From Escherichia coli (GTDB lineage Bacteria > Pseudomonadota > Gammaproteobacteria > Enterobacterales > Enterobacteriaceae), in the NCBI RefSeq assembly GCF_016026235.1, contig NZ_CP065613.1: DNA of 64,000 bases; one strand, 5' to 3'. Both the position numbers and the translations under genes were made by a program. Position 1 is the first letter of the stretch, and every line of letters begins with the position of its first letter. The notes beneath the pieces are model-generated. The model was not told the origin of the DNA. It worked only from the letters and a program-made list of their open reading frames with translations, and made no database searches. Below, piece by piece: positions 2 to 31,275 of this stretch.

Positions 2-355
2 CACACCAAAGATAAGCTTTCCGGCTCCATCGATGCCAACCGCGACTTTGACGGCAGCGCCACCTCCCAGCAGCAGAACAGTCTGCGCGGGGAGATCACC
101 GTGTCCGTCCACGCGGTGCAGCCCAACGGCATCCTGGAAATTCGCGGCGAAAAATGGCTGACCCTCAACCAGGGCGATGAGTACATCCGTTTAAGCGGCC
201 TTGTGCGCGCCGACGACATCCAGAACGACAACTCGGTTTCCTCCCAGCGGATCGCCGATGCCCGCATCTCCTATGCCGGACGCGGCGCGTTAAGCGACGC
301 CAACGCCGCAGGCTGGCTGACGCGACTGTTTAACCATCCTCTGTTCCCGATTTAA
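2..355 (+). CDS. lfgH: Flagellar L-ring protein (FlgH family), 3' part; 5' end lies upstream of the window
   Basis: Open frame from window edge to TAA at 353-355; translation (…[28 protein letters not shown]…[14 protein letters not shown]) matches FlgH C-terminal region; position directly upstream of a FlgI homolog. Confidence 0.8.
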
Positions 356-369
356 TGCCGGAGAGTGCA

Positions 370-1470
370 ATGCAAAACTGGATAAAGGCCGCCGTTATCG
401 CCGTAAGCCTGGCGCTGCCCGGCGTGGCGCTGGCACAATCGCTGGAGTCGCTGGTCAACGTACAGGGCGTGCGTGAAAACCAACTGGTCGGCTACAGCCT
501 GGTGGTCGGCCTCGACGGCACCGGTGATAAAAACCAGGTCAAATTCACCAACCAGACCATCACCAATATGCTGCGCCAGTTCGGCGTGCAATTGCCGAAT
601 AAAATCGACCCGAAGGTGAAAAACGTCGCCGCAGTGGCGGTGAGCGCCACGTTGCCGCCGATGTACTCGCGCGGGCAGACCATTGATGTCACCGTCTCGT
701 CGATTGGCGATGCGAAAAGTATTCGCGGCGGCACCTTGTTGCTGACCCAGCTTCACGGCGCGGATGGCGAAGTGTATGCCCTGGCGCAGGGCTGCGTGGT
801 GGTCGGCGGGATGAACGCCACCGGGGCCAGCGGTTCCAGCGTGACGGTTAACACACCGACCGCTGGGTTAATTCCCAACGGCGCGACGGTGGAGCGCGAG
901 ATCCCCAGCGATTTTCAGATGGGCGATACCATCACGCTTAACCTGAAACGCCCGTCATTTAAAGACGCCAACAATATTGCGGCGGCGATTAACGCCTCGT
1001 TTGGCGGCATTGCCACGGCGCAGAGTTCCACCAACGTTACCGTGCGCGCGCCCACCAGCCCCGGCGCGCGGGTGGCGTTTATGTCGCAACTGGATGATGT
1101 GCAGGTGCAGGCGGAGAAAATCCGCGCCCGCGTGGTGTTTAACTCGCGTACCGGTACGGTGGTGATGGGCGATGGCGTTGCGCTACATGCGGCGGCGGTG
1201 TCTCACGGCAGTCTGACCGTCTCGATTAACGAAACCAGCAACGTCAGCCAGCCGAATGCCTTTGCGGGCGGGCGCACGGCGGTAACGCCGCAGAGCAATA
1301 TCGCGGTGAATCATGCGCGCCCGGGCGTGGTGAGTTTGCCGGAGTCGAGCAGCCTGAAAACGCTGGTCAATGCGTTGAACAGTTTGGGCGCGACGCCGGA
1401 CGACATTATGTCGATTTTACAGGCGTTGCATGAAGCGGGCGCACTGGATGCTGACCTGGAGGTGATCTGA
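370..1470 (+). CDS. lfgI: Flagellar P-ring protein (FlgI family), Flag-2 type
   Basis: 371-aa ORF with N-terminal signal peptide ([22 protein letters not shown]) and FlgI-like core; GGAGAG SD before ATG at 370; alternative ATG at 355 overlaps lfgH stop. Confidence 0.85.
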
Positions 1471-1769
1471 TGAAAGTTAACGCCAGCGGCGGGATTGACG
1501 GCAGCGATGCGTTAATGGGGCCGAAGGTTCAGGCCAATGATATCAAGCAGGCCGCGGAGCAGTTTGAGGCGATTTTTTTACGCAACATGCTGAAAGAGAT
1601 GCGTAAAACCAACGAGCTGTTTGATTCGAAAGATAACCCGTTTAACAGCGATTCGGTGCGCATGATGCAGGGGTTTTATGACGATGAGCTGTGTAACACC
1701 CTGGCGCAGCAGCACGGGATCGGGATTGCGGCGATGATTGTGAAGCAGTTGTCGCCGAAGCATAAATGA
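1470..1769 (+). CDS. lfgJ: Short FlgJ-like rod-binding protein (N-terminal domain only, no muramidase domain)
   Basis: 99-aa ORF, ATGA overlap with lfgI stop; motif AAEQFEAIFLRNMLKEMRK resembles FlgJ N-terminal rod-binding domain. Confidence 0.75.
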   Translation: MKVNASGGIDGSDALMGPKVQANDIKQAAEQFEAIFLRNMLKEMRKTNELFDSKDNPFNSDSVRMMQGFYDDELCNTLAQQHGIGIAAMIVKQLSPKHK

Positions 1770-1785
1770 GGTTCCGGCGTTCGGC

Positions 1786-2062
1786 GCACGGTGCCTGATG
1801 CGACGCTGACGCGTCTTATCAGGCCTACGAGTCGCCCGTATGTAGGCCGGATAAGGCGTTCACGCCGCATCCGGCATTTGGTGCACGGTGCCTGATGCGA
1901 CGCTGACGCGTCTTATCAGGCCTACGAATCGCCCGTATGTAGGCCGGATAAGGCGTTCACGCCGCATCCGGCATTTGGTGCACGGTGCCTGATGCGACGC
2001 TGACGCGTCTTATCAGGCCTACGAGTCGCCCGTATGTAGGCCGGATAAGGCGTTCACGCCGC
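1786..2062. repeat. Tandem array of three ~97-bp REP/BIME-type palindromic units
   Basis: Unit beginning GTGCCTGATGCGACGCTGACGCGTCTTATCAGGCCTACGA…GTAGGCCGGATAAGGCGTTCACGCCGCATCCGGCA recurs with 97-bp period at 1791, 1888, 1985; copies differ by a single base. Confidence 0.9.
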
Positions 2063-2097
2063 TTTTAACCGGCACGATTTACCGGTAAGGATCCAAC

Positions 2098-3474
2098 ATG
2101 GACATGATTAACATCGGCTACAGCGGCGCATCAACCGCGCAGGTGGAGCTGAACGTCACGGCGCAAAACACCGCCAACGCCATGACCACGGGCTACACCC
2201 GCCAGGTGGCGGAGATCAGCACCATCGGCGCCAGCGGCGGTTCGCCGAACAGCGCCGGTAACGGCGTGCAGGTCGACAGCATTCGCCGCGTCTCTAACCA
2301 GTATCAGGTGAATCAGGTGTGGTATGCCGCCAGCGATTACGGCTATTACAGCACCCAGCAGGAGTATCTCACGCAACTGGAAGCGGTATTGAGCGACGAT
2401 AACAGCAGCCTGAGCGGCGGGTTCGATAACTTCTTCGCCGCCCTTAACGAAGCGACCACCAGCCCTGATGATTCCGCCCTGCGCGAGCAGGTGATCAGCG
2501 AAGCCGGGGCGCTGTCGTTGCGTATCGATAACACACTCGATTACGTCGACTCGCAAAGCACGGAAATCATCAGCCAGCAGCAGGCGATGGTGTCGCAAAT
2601 CAATACGCTCACCAGCGGCATCGCCAGCTATAACAAGCAAATCGCCCAGGCCGAAGCCAACGGTGATAACGCCTCTGCGCTGTACGACGCCCGCGATCAG
2701 ATGGTGGAAGAACTCAGCGGGATGATGGATGTGCAGGTTAATATCTACGACCAGGGCAACTACAACGTCACGCTGAAAAATGGTCAGCCGCTGGTGAGCG
2801 GGCAGCAAAGTTCGACCATCGCGCTGGAAACCAACGCCGATGGCACGCCGACCATGTCGCTGACCTTCGCTGGCACTACCTCGACGATGACCACCGACAC
2901 CGGCGGTTCATTAGGCGCACTGTTTGATTATCAAAACGACGTCCTGACGCCGCTGACCGACACCATCAACAGCATGGCGTCGCAGTTTGCCGATGCGGTC
3001 AACAACCAGCTGGCGCAGGGCTACGATCTCAATGGTAACTCCGGCGAGCCGCTGTTTATCTATGACGCCAGCAACGCCGATGGCCCGCTGACCGTTAACC
3101 CGGTTATCACCGCCGATGAGCTGGCGTTTTCCAGTTCACCGGACGAAAGCGGCAACAGCGACAACCTCCAGGCGCTGATCAACATCTCCACCGAACCGCT
3201 GGAGATCGACAATCTTGGCAGCGTGACGGTCGGGCAGGCGTGCTCGTCAATCATCAGCAATATCGGCATCTACAGTCAGCAAAACCAGACGGAAGTCGAT
3301 GCTGCGTCCAATGTCTATTCCGAAGCGCAAAACCAGCAGAGCAGCGTCAGCGGCGTTAGCATGGACGAAGAAGCGGTGAACCTGATCACCTATCAACAAA
3401 TTTATGAAGCCAATCTGAAAGTCATTTCCGCCGGGGCCGAGATTTTCGATTCGGTGCTGGAAATGTGCAGCTAA
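2098..3474 (+). CDS. lfgK: Flagellar hook-associated protein 1 (FlgK family)
   Basis: 458-aa ORF; FlgK-like N-terminus (MDMINIGYSGASTAQVELNVTAQN…) and C-terminus (…ITYQQIYEANLKVISAGAEIFDSVLEM); AAGGA SD upstream. Confidence 0.85.
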   Translation: MDMINIGYSGASTAQVELNVTAQNTANAMTTGYTRQVAEISTIGASGGSPNSAGNGVQVDSIRRVSNQYQVNQVWYAASDYGYYSTQQEYLTQLEAVLSDDNSSLSGGFDNFFAALNEATTSPDDSALREQVISEAGALSLRIDNTLDYVDSQSTEIISQQQAMVSQINTLTSGIASYNKQIAQAEANGDNASALYDARDQMVEELSGMMDVQVNIYDQGNYNVTLKNGQPLVSGQQSSTIALETNADGTPTMSLTFAGTTSTMTTDTGGSLGALFDYQNDVLTPLTDTINSMASQFADAVNNQLAQGYDLNGNSGEPLFIYDASNADGPLTVNPVITADELAFSSSPDESGNSDNLQALINISTEPLEIDNLGSVTVGQACSSIISNIGIYSQQNQTEVDAASNVYSEAQNQQSSVSGVSMDEEAVNLITYQQIYEANLKVISAGAEIFDSVLEMCS

Positions 3475-4434: not shown

Positions 4435-5412
4435 ATGCAGGTCGGACTTACTTCTTCGTCACTCGCCACCGGCGGCGCGCACAGCGCTGCGGTATCGTCG
4501 TCAACCGTTGCGCCCACTCAGGCGGTGCGGCAAAAGCTCCCGGTGACGGCGAGTGAATATCCGGCCTCGCCGCTGATTACCACTCGCCCGCAGCGTTACA
4601 GCGTGCAGCTTAACGACCAGCTCACCACGTTGCAGCAGGCGGATCACTACCTCGGGCAACTGGAGCAGCAGTTGCTCGATTATCGTCATAGCCAGCGTAA
4701 GGGCGGGCAGGCGCAGAGTTCGGCGCTGATGCAGATGCTGGACAAACGCACCGCGCTTTCCGGCGGCGCGGTGGACCGCCAGTTACAGCCGGTGTTGCAG
4801 GGTGAAGCGCGGGTGACCTTTCACTCACCAGATCTGGCAAATCTGGTACACAATTCCACGCCGGGAACGCGTATGTTCAGCGTCTCTGACGGGCGACAGA
4901 CGCAGCTTTCGGCGGTAATGCTATCTGATGATGACAACGCCGGGCAGTATCAGACGCGGCTGACCAACGCCCTGCGCCGCGTGGGCGTGCAGCTACATCA
5001 GCAAGCGGATGGCATCAGTTTCTCCACCACTGAAAAACAGTGGCCCCATATCGAGCGCACCTTAAGCGTGCGTACCGATGGCGATAAATCAGCATTTATG
5101 CCGCTGAAAACCTTTGCTGAGCCGTCACAGGCGGACCGCTTAGCGCAAAGCCTGCAACAGGGCGGGGCGGGGATTTCTCAAATGCTGGAAAACATTAATC
5201 AGCAGCGCGCGCAGATGGCGGTGCAGCAGGAAAAAGCCCGCCAATTGATCGACGGCATGTCCCGCTTCCCGCAAACGGAAAATGCGGTGCAGGCATCGGA
5301 AAACCTCGGCGGCGTACTCGACAGCGCCAATCATAACTATCAGGTGTTATTGCAGGCGGTGAACGGCCAGGCGCGAATTTCCAGCCAGACGGTGAGGAAT
5401 TTATTGGGGTAG
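4435..5412 (+). CDS. lafW: Flag-2 locus protein LafW-like (Gln/Ala-rich, uncertain function)
   Basis: 325-aa ORF directly downstream of lfgL with AGGAACAG SD; assignment by position in laf gene order, not by recognisable motif. Confidence 0.55.
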   Translation: MQVGLTSSSLATGGAHSAAVSSSTVAPTQAVRQKLPVTASEYPASPLITTRPQRYSVQLNDQLTTLQQADHYLGQLEQQLLDYRHSQRKGGQAQSSALMQMLDKRTALSGGAVDRQLQPVLQGEARVTFHSPDLANLVHNSTPGTRMFSVSDGRQTQLSAVMLSDDDNAGQYQTRLTNALRRVGVQLHQQADGISFSTTEKQWPHIERTLSVRTDGDKSAFMPLKTFAEPSQADRLAQSLQQGGAGISQMLENINQQRAQMAVQQEKARQLIDGMSRFPQTENAVQASENLGGVLDSANHNYQVLLQAVNGQARISSQTVRNLLG

Positions 5413-5662: not shown

Positions 5663-5702
5663 GTAGGCCGGATAAGACGCGTTTAGCGTCGCATCCGGCA
5701 TT
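5663..5702. repeat. REP palindromic unit
   Basis: GTAGGCCGGATAAGACGCGTTTAGCGTCGCATCCGGCA between convergent genes. Confidence 0.8.
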
Positions 5703-5714
5703 TATTAGCGCTCA

Positions 5715-6557
5715 TCAGCATTTCTGCACAGTATTTAACAACTTCTCTAAATTCTGGTACATCGCGCTATTAATATCACTATTCTGCCAGCCTTCCACAT
5801 TAAACGTTAATTGCCAGCTACCATTGCACTGGTTGCGCAGAACAATATCACTTTCCAGTCGGTTGCGAACATATTTATAATAGGTTGTCATTGTCATATT
5901 ATGCGCTGACAATAAATTATCGAGTTTGTCTTTCCCTGGTGCGAGGGTTTGTGAAAGTAACGGTGCGGAATTATTTTCTTTTCCAGAACTAAGATGAAAT
6001 ATTTTTATTCTTGGACTATTAACGGATTCTTTTACCAGCTGCGGGGCGTCAGGTGTATTTTTTAAGTGTGAATAACCCACGGTCGAGCCAATAAATATAA
6101 CAGCCGCGGTCAAGGCTAACCCCATCAGTCCTTTATGTTTTTTTCTAACAGGCACAGGCGGTGTTGTCGAAGATATCTCTTCTGGCGCTGTTTCTTTTAT
6201 CTGGTCGGTAATAATCAGCGCTTCCGCAGGCGATGACTCCGGCAAAGACACATACTCTTTATTGCATAAGTAACCTTTCTTCGGAATTGTTTTAATAATG
6301 TTCTGTTGTTTGCCATCATCGTCGATAGCAACGCGCAACGCATGAATCGCCGTCGGCAGGCTGTTACCGCCGACAATGCGGTTCTTCCATACTTCGGCAC
6401 ATAAATAAGATCGCGATAAAACTACATCGGCATTTTTTGCTAATGTTTCCAGCAAAATAAAATGGTATTCGCCGAGACGACGTGTTTCACCCGTTTCGCA
6501 ATGTATTAAGGCATTAAGCGACGGGTCCATCCGCCAGTTGTTGATAATAATACTCAT
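5715..6557 (-). CDS. lafZ: ToxR/CadC-like transmembrane transcriptional regulator (N-terminal winged-helix OmpR-type DNA-binding domain, one TM segment, periplasmic C-domain)
   Basis: Translation has OmpR/PhoB-type wHTH region (…LETLAKNADVVLSRSYLCAEVWKNRIVGGNSLPTAIHALRVAI…IKTIPKKGYLC) followed by hydrophobic segment GLMGLALTAAVIFIGSTVGY; ORF extends to 6614 but ATG at 6557 (MSIIINN) is the more likely start. Confidence 0.7.
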   Translation of the reverse strand: MSIIINNWRMDPSLNALIHCETGETRRLGEYHFILLETLAKNADVVLSRSYLCAEVWKNRIVGGNSLPTAIHALRVAIDDDGKQQNIIKTIPKKGYLCNKEYVSLPESSPAEALIITDQIKETAPEEISSTTPPVPVRKKHKGLMGLALTAAVIFIGSTVGYSHLKNTPDAPQLVKESVNSPRIKIFHLSSGKENNSAPLLSQTLAPGKDKLDNLLSAHNMTMTTYYKYVRNRLESDIVLRNQCNGSWQLTFNVEGWQNSDINSAMYQNLEKLLNTVQKC

Positions 6558-6970
6558 AGTTGAGTTTACCTTAGCAAGGGATAAATGTTCCTGATAGTGC
6601 TTTGCATAAAGCACAGTCTTATACGTCCCTGAGAAGATGATTTTTCTGCGTGATAATTAATATTTTATGGTAATAGGATTATTCTTAATCACTATATGGC
6701 GTGGAAATGTAACGAAATGACAGGACAGGTACAATAGCCAAATGTGTACTATTTGCAACGCAATGTAAATTTTGGCATCAGTACATTGAGAAGAAAACGC
6801 ATTAATTGATGGTAATCTTAACTATATCAAGCGTTTGATAAAGACATATTTTGATACCTGGCCATGTGGCAGATATTGCTAATAATCTTTTTATCTGAAT
6901 TTAAACTCTGCTTTTTTTTAGCTAAAAGTGGCATCAGATAATACGTAGCGAAAATTTTTTCATAGCGATT

Positions 6971-6997
6971 TTAAGTTTGCTCCTGAGGTGTCGTTTT
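6971..6997 (+). promoter_or_regulatory. Candidate sigma-28 (FliA/LafS-type) promoter upstream of lafA
   Basis: TTAAGTTT (7/8 to TAAAGTTT) -N11- GTCGTTTT (weak match to GCCGATAA), ~45 bp upstream of lafA ATG. Confidence 0.3.
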
Positions 6998-7042: not shown

Positions 7043-7957
7043 ATGTTATCTATTAACACCAATAACGCCTCAATGGCCGCCGTTAATGCAATCAGCAAAA
7101 GCAGCTCTTCTCTGTCTACATCTATGGAACGCCTGGCGACAGGTAACCGGATTAACTCTTCTGCCGATGACGCCGCAGGCAAACAAATTGCTAACCGTCT
7201 GACTGCACAGTCCAGCGGTATGGGCGTGGCGCTGAGCAACATCAATGATGCCACCGCGATGCTGCAAACCGCTGACAGCATGTTCGACGAAATGTCTGAC
7301 GTGCTGGGCCGTATGAAAGACCTGTCAACTCAGGCAGCGAACGGCACCTACAGCGACGACGATCTGCAGGCGATGCAGGACGAATACGACGAACTGGGTC
7401 AGCAGATGTCTGACATGCTGCAAAATACCACTTACGGCGGTACCAACCTGTTCGGTGTTTCCGGTACCAGCAACACCGGTACTGACGGTCTGTTCCAGAG
7501 CGCGGTAACTTTCCAGGTGGGCGCGGAATCTTCCGACACCATGACCGTGAATATTTCAAGCCAGCTGAATACCCTGGTGACGGATCTTTCTGCTATCAGC
7601 AACTCCTTCAGTGCGGATCAGGCAGACACCACGGGTACTGCAGGCGTGTCTGGCGGTACTGAGCTGACTGCGTCTGGCTCGGCTAACCAGATGATCACCA
7701 GCATTTCTACCGCGATGGATGACGTGTCGCAGATCCAGTCCAAACTGGGTGCGTCTATTAACCGTCTGAACGACACTGCCAACAACCTGACCAGCATGCA
7801 GGACAACACCGAAGTCGCTATCGGTAACATCATGGATACCGACTACGCGACGGAAGCGTCCAACATGACCAAACAGCAGGTGCTGATGCAAACCGGCATC
7901 ACCATGCTGAAACAGTCCAACAGCATGTCCAGCATGGTTTCCAGCCTGCTGCAGTAA
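7043..7957 (+). CDS. lafA: Lateral flagellin
   Basis: 305-aa product with flagellin N-terminus (MLSINTNNASMAAVNAISKSSSSLSTSMERLATGNRINSSADDAAG) and C-terminus (…TKQQVLMQTGITMLKQSNSMSSMVSSLLQ); AAGGAG SD at 7030-7035. Confidence 0.9.
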   Translation: MLSINTNNASMAAVNAISKSSSSLSTSMERLATGNRINSSADDAAGKQIANRLTAQSSGMGVALSNINDATAMLQTADSMFDEMSDVLGRMKDLSTQAANGTYSDDDLQAMQDEYDELGQQMSDMLQNTTYGGTNLFGVSGTSNTGTDGLFQSAVTFQVGAESSDTMTVNISSQLNTLVTDLSAISNSFSADQADTTGTAGVSGGTELTASGSANQMITSISTAMDDVSQIQSKLGASINRLNDTANNLTSMQDNTEVAIGNIMDTDYATEASNMTKQQVLMQTGITMLKQSNSMSSMVSSLLQ

Positions 7958-7960
7958 TGG

Positions 7961-7999
7961 CGGACTTGCCGGATGCGGCGTAAACGCCTTATTCGGCCT
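7961..7999. repeat. REP palindromic unit downstream of lafA
   Basis: GCCGGATGCGGCGTAAACGCCTTATTCGGCCTAC. Confidence 0.75.
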
Positions 8000-8003
8000 A
8001 CGA

Positions 8004-8109: not shown

Positions 8110-8137
8110 AAAATATTGGCACGCCTTTTGCCAATAA
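8110..8137 (+). promoter_or_regulatory. Candidate sigma-28-type promoter upstream of lafB
   Basis: GCCAATAA at 8130-8137 (7/8 to -10 consensus GCCGATAA), 27 bp upstream of lafB ATG; -35 match weak. Confidence 0.3.
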
Positions 8138-24601: not shown

Positions 24602-24677
24602 GCCGATATAGCTCAGTTGGTAGAGCAGCGCATTCGTAATGCGAAGGTCGTAGGTTCGACTCCTATTATCGGCACCA
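24602..24677 (+). tRNA. thrW: tRNA-Thr (anticodon CGU)
   Basis: GCCGATATAGCTCAGTTGGTAGAGCAGCGCATTCGTAATGCG… cloverleaf with CGT anticodon loop and TTCGA T-arm, ending GGCACCA. Confidence 0.9.
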
Positions 24678-31029: not shown

Positions 31030-31275
31030 TGCATTGAATGATAAAAATGGCGCAAATACAGCGCCATTTTTATAGGTTAAAAACATTGCTTTTTATATTC
31101 TGATTCAGATAGTCAGTGAGTATATCGCGCTACTTCAGGATGATGTAGATCCGAAGAACGCTACAGAAGAGAGGCATTGTTGCTGGCAAATAGAAGAAGT
31201 ATCGGGTTTTGTTGCCCCTAAAAACGAAGCCCCGCTATTACAGTAGGCGGGGCAGTGCAATTAATTATTGTATGT

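Follow-up and report, generated by a model that had tools for sequence, protein, structure and literature searches.

Between the Flag-2 genes lfgJ and lfgK of Escherichia coli lies a block of repeated DNA, and the question that it raises is what kind of element this is and whether it has any consequence for the flagellar genes on either side. We addressed it in a stretch of 64,000 nucleotides (contig NZ_CP065613.1 of assembly GCF_016026235.1, hereafter the window), which an initial annotation had read as carrying a triplicated array of 97-bp REP/BIME units inside a flagellar operon, possibly decoupling lfgHIJ from lfgKL. The lfgJ-lfgK gap measures 328 nt and is filled by the array, which is wholly extragenic. 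Upstream of it lie lfgI (355-1470) and lfgJ (1470-1769, + strand), the latter coding for a 99-aa rod-binding protein of the FlgJ N-terminal type (open reading frame list and NCBIfam FlgJ-type matches; stop codon TGA at 1767-1769), the orthologue of which is annotated as 'rod-binding protein' in RefSeq. Downstream, lfgK (2098-3474, + strand) encodes hook-associated protein 1 (TIGR02492 FlgK, E = 6e-105), with its start codon ATG at 2098 and a ribosome-binding site AAGGA at 2087-2091 on the same strand.

Tandem Repeats Finder reported an array of period 97 at 1773-2062 (3.0 copies, 97% matches, no indels, score 552), and a repeat search of the window returned units at 1773-1869, 1870-1966 and 1967-2063 that are 96-100% identical, confirming the triplicated head-to-tail arrangement. 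Comparison of the units places the final base of the third one, at 2063, among the differences, and we take this unit as 1967-2062. The extent first given for the array, 1786-2062, needs correction at its start: beginning at 1786 skips three linker differences, at 1779, 1782 and 1785, that distinguish unit 1 from units 2 and 3. The accompanying statement that the copies differ by one base is true within 1786-2062, where the units read G/A/G at 1831/1928/2025, the A being found in unit 2 alone.

On the + strand, each unit is made of a head-to-head linker TCCGGCATTTGGTGCACGGT, a Z2 palindrome, a 13-nt linker and an inverted Y palindrome. The Z2-type REP is the 36-nt sequence GCCTGATGCGACGCTGACGCGTCTTATCAGGCCTAC, located at 1793-1828 in unit 1 and repeated identically at 1890-1925 and 1987-2022 (assigned by pattern search, fold and likeness to the Z2 class of REP325). 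It is followed by the tail-to-tail linker GAGTCGCCCGTAT, that is, GA(G/A)TCGCCCGTAT, at 1829-1841, with copies at 1926-1938 (the GAATC variant) and 2023-2035. Then comes the inverted Y-type REP GTAGGCCGGATAAGGCGTTCACGCCGCATCCGGC, at 1842-1875 and, in an identical copy, at 1939-1972 (pattern search, fold and match to the Y units of REP325), and behind each of these the 14-nt head-to-head linker ATTTGGTGCACGGT (1876-1889 and 1973-1986). A related flank that resembles this linker, TCCGGCGTTCGGCGCACGGT, opens the array at 1773-1792. The characteristic feet of REPs, CTAC at the 3′ end of the Z2 REP (1825-1828) and GTAG at the 5′ end of the Y REP (1842-1845), recur in each unit, and the REP pattern yielded three matches against 0.00 expected in shuffled sequences. 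Two inverted REP palindromes had been described for every unit; this is correct for units 1 and 2, while the third Y REP (2036-2062) is truncated and lacks its 3′ arm ATCCGGC. The array thus contains five complete hairpins and one truncated.

Under the Gilson/Bachellier nomenclature, as summarised by Ton-Hoang et al. in 2012 (PMC3333891), a BIME-2 element is built from z2 and y REPs and repeated several times in tandem, its short linker being called S and its flanking motifs s, l or r; the copies are well conserved within a locus, and their number per locus differs between strains. In the lfgJ-lfgK gap, Z2 REPs (from 1793, 1890 and 1987) alternate with inverted Y REPs (from 1842, 1939 and 2036), GTAG/CTAC feet and the stem mismatch are present, tandem copies are joined by short linkers of 13 nt and 14 nt, the site is extragenic and the locus varies in copy number (0, 1, 3, 4 or ~6 units) with near-identical units (96-100%). 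The Flag-2 array shares all of this with the family, both short linkers included, and shows no structural difference from it, its last Y REP having been truncated by a deletion. Since every sequence-level feature of the family definition is found here, the repeat is almost certainly an ordinary BIME-2, the E. coli REP family in its tandem form. It does not figure in the classic BIME catalogues because the lfgJ-lfgK locus is absent from K-12.

The Rfam model naRNA4 (RF02564) matched twice with 84.4 bits, at 1845-1922 and at 1942-2019 on the + strand, passing its gathering threshold of 59.5; each match spans a Y REP, the linker and the next Z2 REP. Matches to Rfam microRNA models were rejected, as they fell far under their thresholds and reflect the palindromes alone. 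The naRNA4 family corresponds to a single Y+Z2 pair from REP325, a K-12 array in the yjdM-yjdN gap that we read directly from NC_000913.3 (a record without REP features there). REP325 has the same Z2-linker-inverted Y-linker order as the Flag-2 array, in the same orientation relative to transcription, and it too is located between genes on the same strand; its units are 83-87% identical to the window unit. It differs in its linkers, in its period (100 nt against 97 nt) and in its size, with about six units (12 hairpins) against three units with five complete hairpins and one truncated. Furthermore, the Flag-2 array probably precedes a promoter belonging to the downstream gene, whereas none has been described for yjdN, and the terminator/stabiliser effect has been measured for REP325 alone.

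Folding of each unit as RNA, proposed at the outset as a check, bore out the presence of stable hairpins. The Z2 palindrome gave a hairpin of -22.4 kcal/mol (z = -5.0) and the Y palindrome one of -20.9 kcal/mol (z = -4.6), each with an internal mismatch, so that both lie at a z of about -5. Adjacent palindromes can also pair with each other (predicted -49.4 and -44.0 kcal/mol), and the whole lfgJ-lfgK gap folds with -181.7 kcal/mol (z = -6.4). The truncated third Y REP, at 2036-2062, gave no significant fold (z = -0.56). Liang, Rudd and Deutscher reportedly described, in 2015, ribosome stalling when a REP stands within about 15 nt of a stop codon. This stop-proximal control of translation is probably inapplicable at the present locus, where the first REP begins ~21-24 nt after the lfgJ stop.

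Searching with the two flanks and leaving out the array, we counted the locus in 1,275 of 5,426 complete E. coli genomes, at a flank-to-flank distance that varies. Among carriers sampled at even intervals along the ranking, 58 had both flanks; the insert was 138-168 nt long in 52 of these and at least 216 nt long in 6, and about 90% of the sampled carriers have one unit. The copy-number comparison across Flag-2 strains suggested by the initial annotation returned alleles with 0, 1, 3, 4 and ~6 units. The site is empty in AHB5 (a 76-nt gap without REP) and holds one Z2+Y pair in 042, CI5, EcPF7 and PSS-12. XH990 carries three 97-nt units followed by a 55-nt tail, and FDAARGOS_943 four units and the tail. 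In ECCNB12-2 we read three units of a variant whose period is 119 nt and whose inner linker is long; the flank-to-flank span is the same in SMS-3-5 and others. A gap of 794 nt, with about six units of the long variant, belongs to Escherichia sp. MOD1-EC7003.

The near-identity of the units had been taken as a sign of recent amplification. Yet the 110 nt that run from linker 1 to linker 2, with a unit junction and the G-to-A variant among them, match at 100% identity in 23 records and at 99% or more in two more. As it occurs in about 25 other complete genomes, the amplification is common to several lineages and is neither private to this strain nor very recent; what is recent is a 152-nt deletion described below. 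Changes in unit number would come from identical units recombining unequally or slipping against each other, possibly with the assistance of RayT, the REP-associated tyrosine transposase (rayT/yafM). In REPIN/RAYT systems the unit is an inverted REP doublet, as in the Flag-2 array, and the GTAG tetranucleotide and stem mismatch needed for RayT binding are both present in it. RayT cleaves and recombines single-stranded BIMEs in vitro (PMC3333891). The rayT gene is annotated beside lfhA, next to Flag-2, in FDAARGOS_943 (99.9% identical to the window); it lies ~30 kb from the array, in a position outside the window.

We extracted the lfgJ-lfgK gap from Flag-2 loci of one genome per species. In Citrobacter, Phytobacter, Enterobacter, Leminorella and others the gap is 66-100 nt long and contains no REP; that of Pseudocitrobacter holds a different small palindromic element. 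An alignment of 13 related sequences showed a nearly invariant motif before lfgK, TTAAGAA-N13-G(C/T)CG(C/T)T, in 13/13 of them and with a spacing of exactly 13 nt, whereas the gap overall is 51% conserved. A search with the pattern TTAAG-N14-15-GYCGYTTT in a 46-kb stretch of FDAARGOS_943, mostly Flag-2, found it upstream of lfgK (by 33 nt) and of lafA (by 46 nt) and nowhere else; the window has it before lafA only. This pattern was written after both sites had been seen and its shuffle statistics are indicative only, but the conservation across species is independent of it. Set against the E. coli FliA consensus, TAAAGTTT-N11-GCCGATAA, the Flag-2 motif TTAAGAA-N13-GCCGCTTT is divergent, and the lfgK upstream region scores 10/16, no better than background. 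It is the cross-species conservation, and not the FliA-consensus score, that makes the motif convincing.

In the lateral system of Vibrio parahaemolyticus, the genes flgBCDEFGHIJ are class II, and flgKL and lafA are sigma-28-dependent class III (PMC6963403); that of Plesiomonas has a lateral sigma factor which activates flgKL (PMC11242183). Flag-2 resembles both: flgB-J adjoins flgKL on the same strand, and a sigma-28-type bipartite motif stands before flgK and before the flagellin gene. It differs from them in that, in Escherichia, a BIME is interposed between the lfgJ stop and the motif, and in that the promoter is here predicted from sequence. Because the motif is conserved, is found before lafA too, and flgKL is sigma-28 class III in other lateral systems, it is likely to be a LafS-type (sigma-28-like) promoter. 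The gap is then probably a class II / class III operon boundary and not an intra-operon spacer, and the conserved sigma-28-like motif would mark this boundary in Flag-2. The array likely closes the lfgB-J unit at its 3′ end and precedes the candidate lfgK promoter. On the same grounds, the initial claim that the array sits inside an operon is doubtful. In all the other Escherichia BIME alleles that we compared, TTAAGAA comes after the array and the motif is unbroken, which suggests selection against its disruption.

The motif could also be read as a terminator. In Citrobacter the same stretch folds as a hairpin (-13 to -21 kcal/mol) followed by a T-run, and part of its conservation could reflect this activity. 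On the other hand, it does not fold (0 to -8 kcal/mol) in Escherichia, Leminorella, C. freundii M-21 and Enterobacter ENT03, and boxes and spacing are kept in all of them. As several lineages keep the boxes without the fold, we set the terminator aside as the main reading and retain it as a caveat. Under either reading, promoter or terminator, the gap separates two transcription units.

What a BIME-2 array would do in such a place can be proposed by analogy with REP325, for which the effect suggested in the initial annotation, stabilised upstream mRNA and attenuated read-through, has been measured. Deletion of REP325 in the yjdMN operon brings the yjdM/yjdN mRNA ratio from ~35 to ~1 and raises downstream expression about ten-fold, and bicyclomycin increases read-through from 23% to 39%, termination being partly Rho-dependent (bioRxiv 10.64898/2026.03.23.713779). 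Transcribed from the lfgB promoter, the hairpins of the Flag-2 array would block 3′-to-5′ exonucleases and hence stabilise lfgB-J mRNA; they would also lower read-through into lfgK, as for REP325. In strains that keep the tail, the promoter of lfgKL would still drive these genes, and the main effect of the array would be a sharper class II / class III boundary. We give the statement as a whole, that is, a BIME-2 array at the 3′ end of lfgB-J acting through this stabiliser/read-through mechanism, a probability of roughly 0.6. The size of the effect is uncertain for five complete hairpins and one truncated, since REP325 fragments of 2-4 hairpins have no detectable Rho dependence, which is seen for the 12-hairpin array only, and since REP effects are context-dependent (same study).

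The closest genome to the window is that of E. coli FDAARGOS_943, with 99.9% identity over 18-21 kb (14 substitutions in 21 kb), the next genomes being at 97.4%, and the side-by-side comparison of both sequences (with blastn) reveals a deletion at the edge of the array. Units 1-3 of the window are identical to units 1-3 of FDAARGOS_943, with the G/A/G order kept. In FDAARGOS_943, unit 3 is followed by a fourth unit and then by the tail ATCCGGCATTTGGCACCCGGTTTACGGAACTTAAGAATCCCCAACTTCACGCCGC, whereas the window jumps from TTCACGCCGC, within the third Y REP, directly to TTTTAACCGG. The missing 152 nt comprise unit 4 and the 55-nt tail with TTAAGAA, and the deletion is bounded by two 10-bp direct repeats of TTCACGCCGC, which at the junction occupies 2053-2062. 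Only the downstream half of the lfgK motif survives, the -10-like GCCGCTTTTA at 2058-2067, the spacer having gone with TTAAGAA; the lost TTAAGAA half was not found in window positions 1700-2120, nor anything similar at the right distance from GCCGCTTTTA. A 44-nt probe seeding only across the junction had no match among the 5,426 complete E. coli genomes, and the deletion is a recent, strain-specific change. With its end-points in a 10-bp direct repeat, it points to slippage or to recombination at microhomology, and in this it differs from RAYT systems.

Deletion between the two TTCACGCCGC repeats would have removed unit 4 together with the -35-like half of the lfgK motif, and the lfgK promoter is probably lost in the window. 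Expression of lfgKL in this strain would then rely on attenuated read-through and would probably be low. From this we derive a tentative reading, to which we give somewhat less than even odds, in which the BIME array has been mutagenic for its surroundings: 10 bp shared by a Y REP and the native spacer of the lfgK promoter allowed the 152-nt deletion of the -35-like element and left lfgKL promoterless behind an attenuating array. If true, this would give a tangible example of an array of REPs that rewires or silences the transcription unit next to it, and hastens the decay of Flag-2. The array itself is of a well-described and already known kind; modestly new are only the conserved lfgK motif, not mentioned in the one Flag-2 comparative paper searched (PMC6993521), and the loss of part of this motif where the array ends. 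The natural alleles with 0, 1, 3, 4 and ~6 units, together with the promoter-half deletion, constitute a ready-made series for the effects of REP copy number on mRNA stability and read-through. The effect of short arrays is a question left open by the 2026 study of REP325 (bioRxiv 10.64898/2026.03.23.713779).

The strongest rival to a stabiliser/read-through role is that the array has no consequence for fitness or expression: a selfish, RayT-dependent repeat drifting neutrally in a permissive site of a decaying cluster, with the 152-nt deletion as one more step of decay. It is compatible with BIME-2 identity and differs from our preferred explanation on consequence only. The presence/absence and copy-number polymorphism of the locus, empty site included, is what neutrality would give, as is the different small palindromic element in the gap of Pseudocitrobacter. 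So is the condition of the cluster. In FDAARGOS_943, Flag-2 is broken by the deletion of lfgE, by ISEc60 in lfgH and by an internal stop in lfgL; in 042, flgC is frameshifted; and in the window the conserved lfgK motif was itself destroyed by the deletion. Contrary to this, all the other BIME alleles compared are placed upstream of the conserved motif and leave it intact, lfgH (of which part is present), lfgI, lfgJ, lfgK and lfgL are all open in the window, and arrays of the REP325 type measurably alter the expression of neighbouring genes. We consider neutrality unlikely on balance, but a serious contender. As Flag-2 is already broken in the sister strain FDAARGOS_943, any regulatory effect of the array may be moot in the lineage that it forms with the window. 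A Z1-like REP was also seen in FDAARGOS_943, at the scar of the lfgE deletion.

Taken literally, the initial annotation makes lfgB-lfgL a single operon, with the array inside it acting to decouple lfgHIJ from lfgKL and to set the ratio between them. All the genes are indeed on the same strand with short gaps, neither a sigma-70 promoter nor an intrinsic terminator was predicted in window positions 1400-2500, and with the -35-like element gone in the window, read-through may be the main source of lfgKL mRNA. However, this reading does not account for a bipartite motif that is conserved before lfgK across genera and present before lafA, it departs from related lateral systems, whose flgKL forms a sigma-28 class III operon of its own, and most species have no REP in the gap. 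We hold it to be improbable.

The array could, alternatively, act at the DNA level and independently of transcription, as a strong binding and cleavage site for DNA gyrase that sets local supercoiling between the two flagellar units. This proposal, made by analogy, draws on the observation that BIME-2 elements are significantly enriched for in vivo gyrase cleavage sites, mostly in Y REPs, and that the signal goes up when transcription is blocked; yet a subset only of BIME-2 elements has such sites (PMC6379681). Moreover, the REP325 study found no evidence of REPs organising the chromosome (bioRxiv 10.64898/2026.03.23.713779), and we put little weight on a gyrase role at this locus.

Mis-assembly of the repeat, as the origin of the copy number or of the missing tail, is very unlikely. 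Tandem repeats of 97 nt are difficult to assemble, the nearest genome, FDAARGOS_943, has four units and the tail, and the junction is unique among 5,426 genomes. Nevertheless, the sequences joined share 10 nt only, which is too short for collapse by an assembler, and the units of the window carry the G/A/G variants in the order of FDAARGOS_943. The window also differs independently from that genome: it has no ISEc60 in lfgH (a 12-bp overlap at window positions 89-100 corresponds to the insertion site in FDAARGOS_943), its lfgL lacks the stop, and the two differ by the substitutions counted above.

Finally, that the two naRNA4-like segments form a gene for nucleoid-associated RNAs, processed to bind HU and condense the chromosome as in the original naRNA4 proposal (PMC4550694), has in its favour matches above the Rfam threshold, but the model is in effect a Y+Z2 REP pair that any BIME-2 would match, and deletion or over-expression of REP325 leaves nucleoid volume and REP-REP contacts unchanged (bioRxiv 10.64898/2026.03.23.713779), which makes a gene of this kind extremely improbable here. 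For annotation, BIME-2/REP is the appropriate label for the array, and no gene should be called from the naRNA4 match; beyond annotation, this matters little.

Upstream of lfgK lies a bipartite element, TTAAGAA-N13-GCCGCTTT, which is conserved in 13 related sequences and resembles a sigma-28 promoter. Comparison of positions 2053-2067 of the window with positions 500-981 of the corresponding locus (L004) in the sister strain FDAARGOS_943 revealed a 152-nt deletion, as a consequence of which the TTAAGAA half of the element is gone from the window. No copy of the junction left by this deletion turned up among 5,426 complete E. coli genomes.

A motif like that of lfgK, TTAAGTTT-N11-GTCGTTTT, is present at 6971-6997, 46 nt before lafA (7043-7957), which encodes the lateral flagellin. 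The pattern matches nowhere else in the 64-kb window. Further along, the lafB/fliD start (8164) is preceded at a distance of 33 nt by a perfect sigma-54 core (TGGCAC-N5-TTGC, 8117-8131). This core suggests that the lafB/fliD operon is controlled by LafK/sigma-54, a single match of this kind being not significant when compared with shuffled sequences (21/100).

We also compared the lfgJ-lfgK gap in relatives. In Citrobacter spp. (L016-L022, L027, L032 and L033) the stretch from TTAAGAA to GCCGCT folds into a hairpin (-13 to -21 kcal/mol) with T-rich sequence behind it, so in these species the promoter may overlap with a terminator. Pseudocitrobacter (L023 and L024) carries in the gap a different GC-rich palindromic insertion of ~125 nt (GCCCTCACCC...CCCTCTCCC...GGGAGAGGG...GGGTGAGGGC), also upstream of TTAAGAA; of this insertion E. 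whittamii (L014) retains a remnant only. Small repeats seem to land repeatedly in this gap. A variant array with a 34-nt AT-rich inner linker and a period of ~119 nt, possibly an 'atypical BIME', occupies the gap in ECCNB12-2 (L005, three units) and in Escherichia sp. MOD1-EC7003 (L015, about six units).

Two single Y-type REPs are located at 5663-5698, between an ORF (4435-5412) and a convergent regulator gene (5715-6614, minus strand), and at 7968-8001, immediately 3′ of lafA, where a GC hairpin and a T-rich run come after the REP. In FDAARGOS_943 the gene for the REP-associated tyrosine transposase, rayT (L062, 3875-4372), is the immediate neighbour of lfhA, about 30 kb away from the array at the other end of Flag-2. 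The same strain lacks the hook gene lfgE (L010, 24552-24652), which is present in E. coli 042 (L063, 3632-4834), and the lfgD-lfgF scar holds a Z1-like REP (GCCTGATGCGCTTCGCTTATCAGGCC). Its cluster also carries two features that the window does not have, an ISEc60 within lfgH (12-bp overlap, corresponding to window positions 89-100) and a stop inside lfgL.

Elsewhere in the window, and with no relation to the array, we noted a tRNA gene at 24602-24674 (+) and a match to Rfam IS009 at 31035-31233 (+), scoring 188 bits against a threshold of 117.
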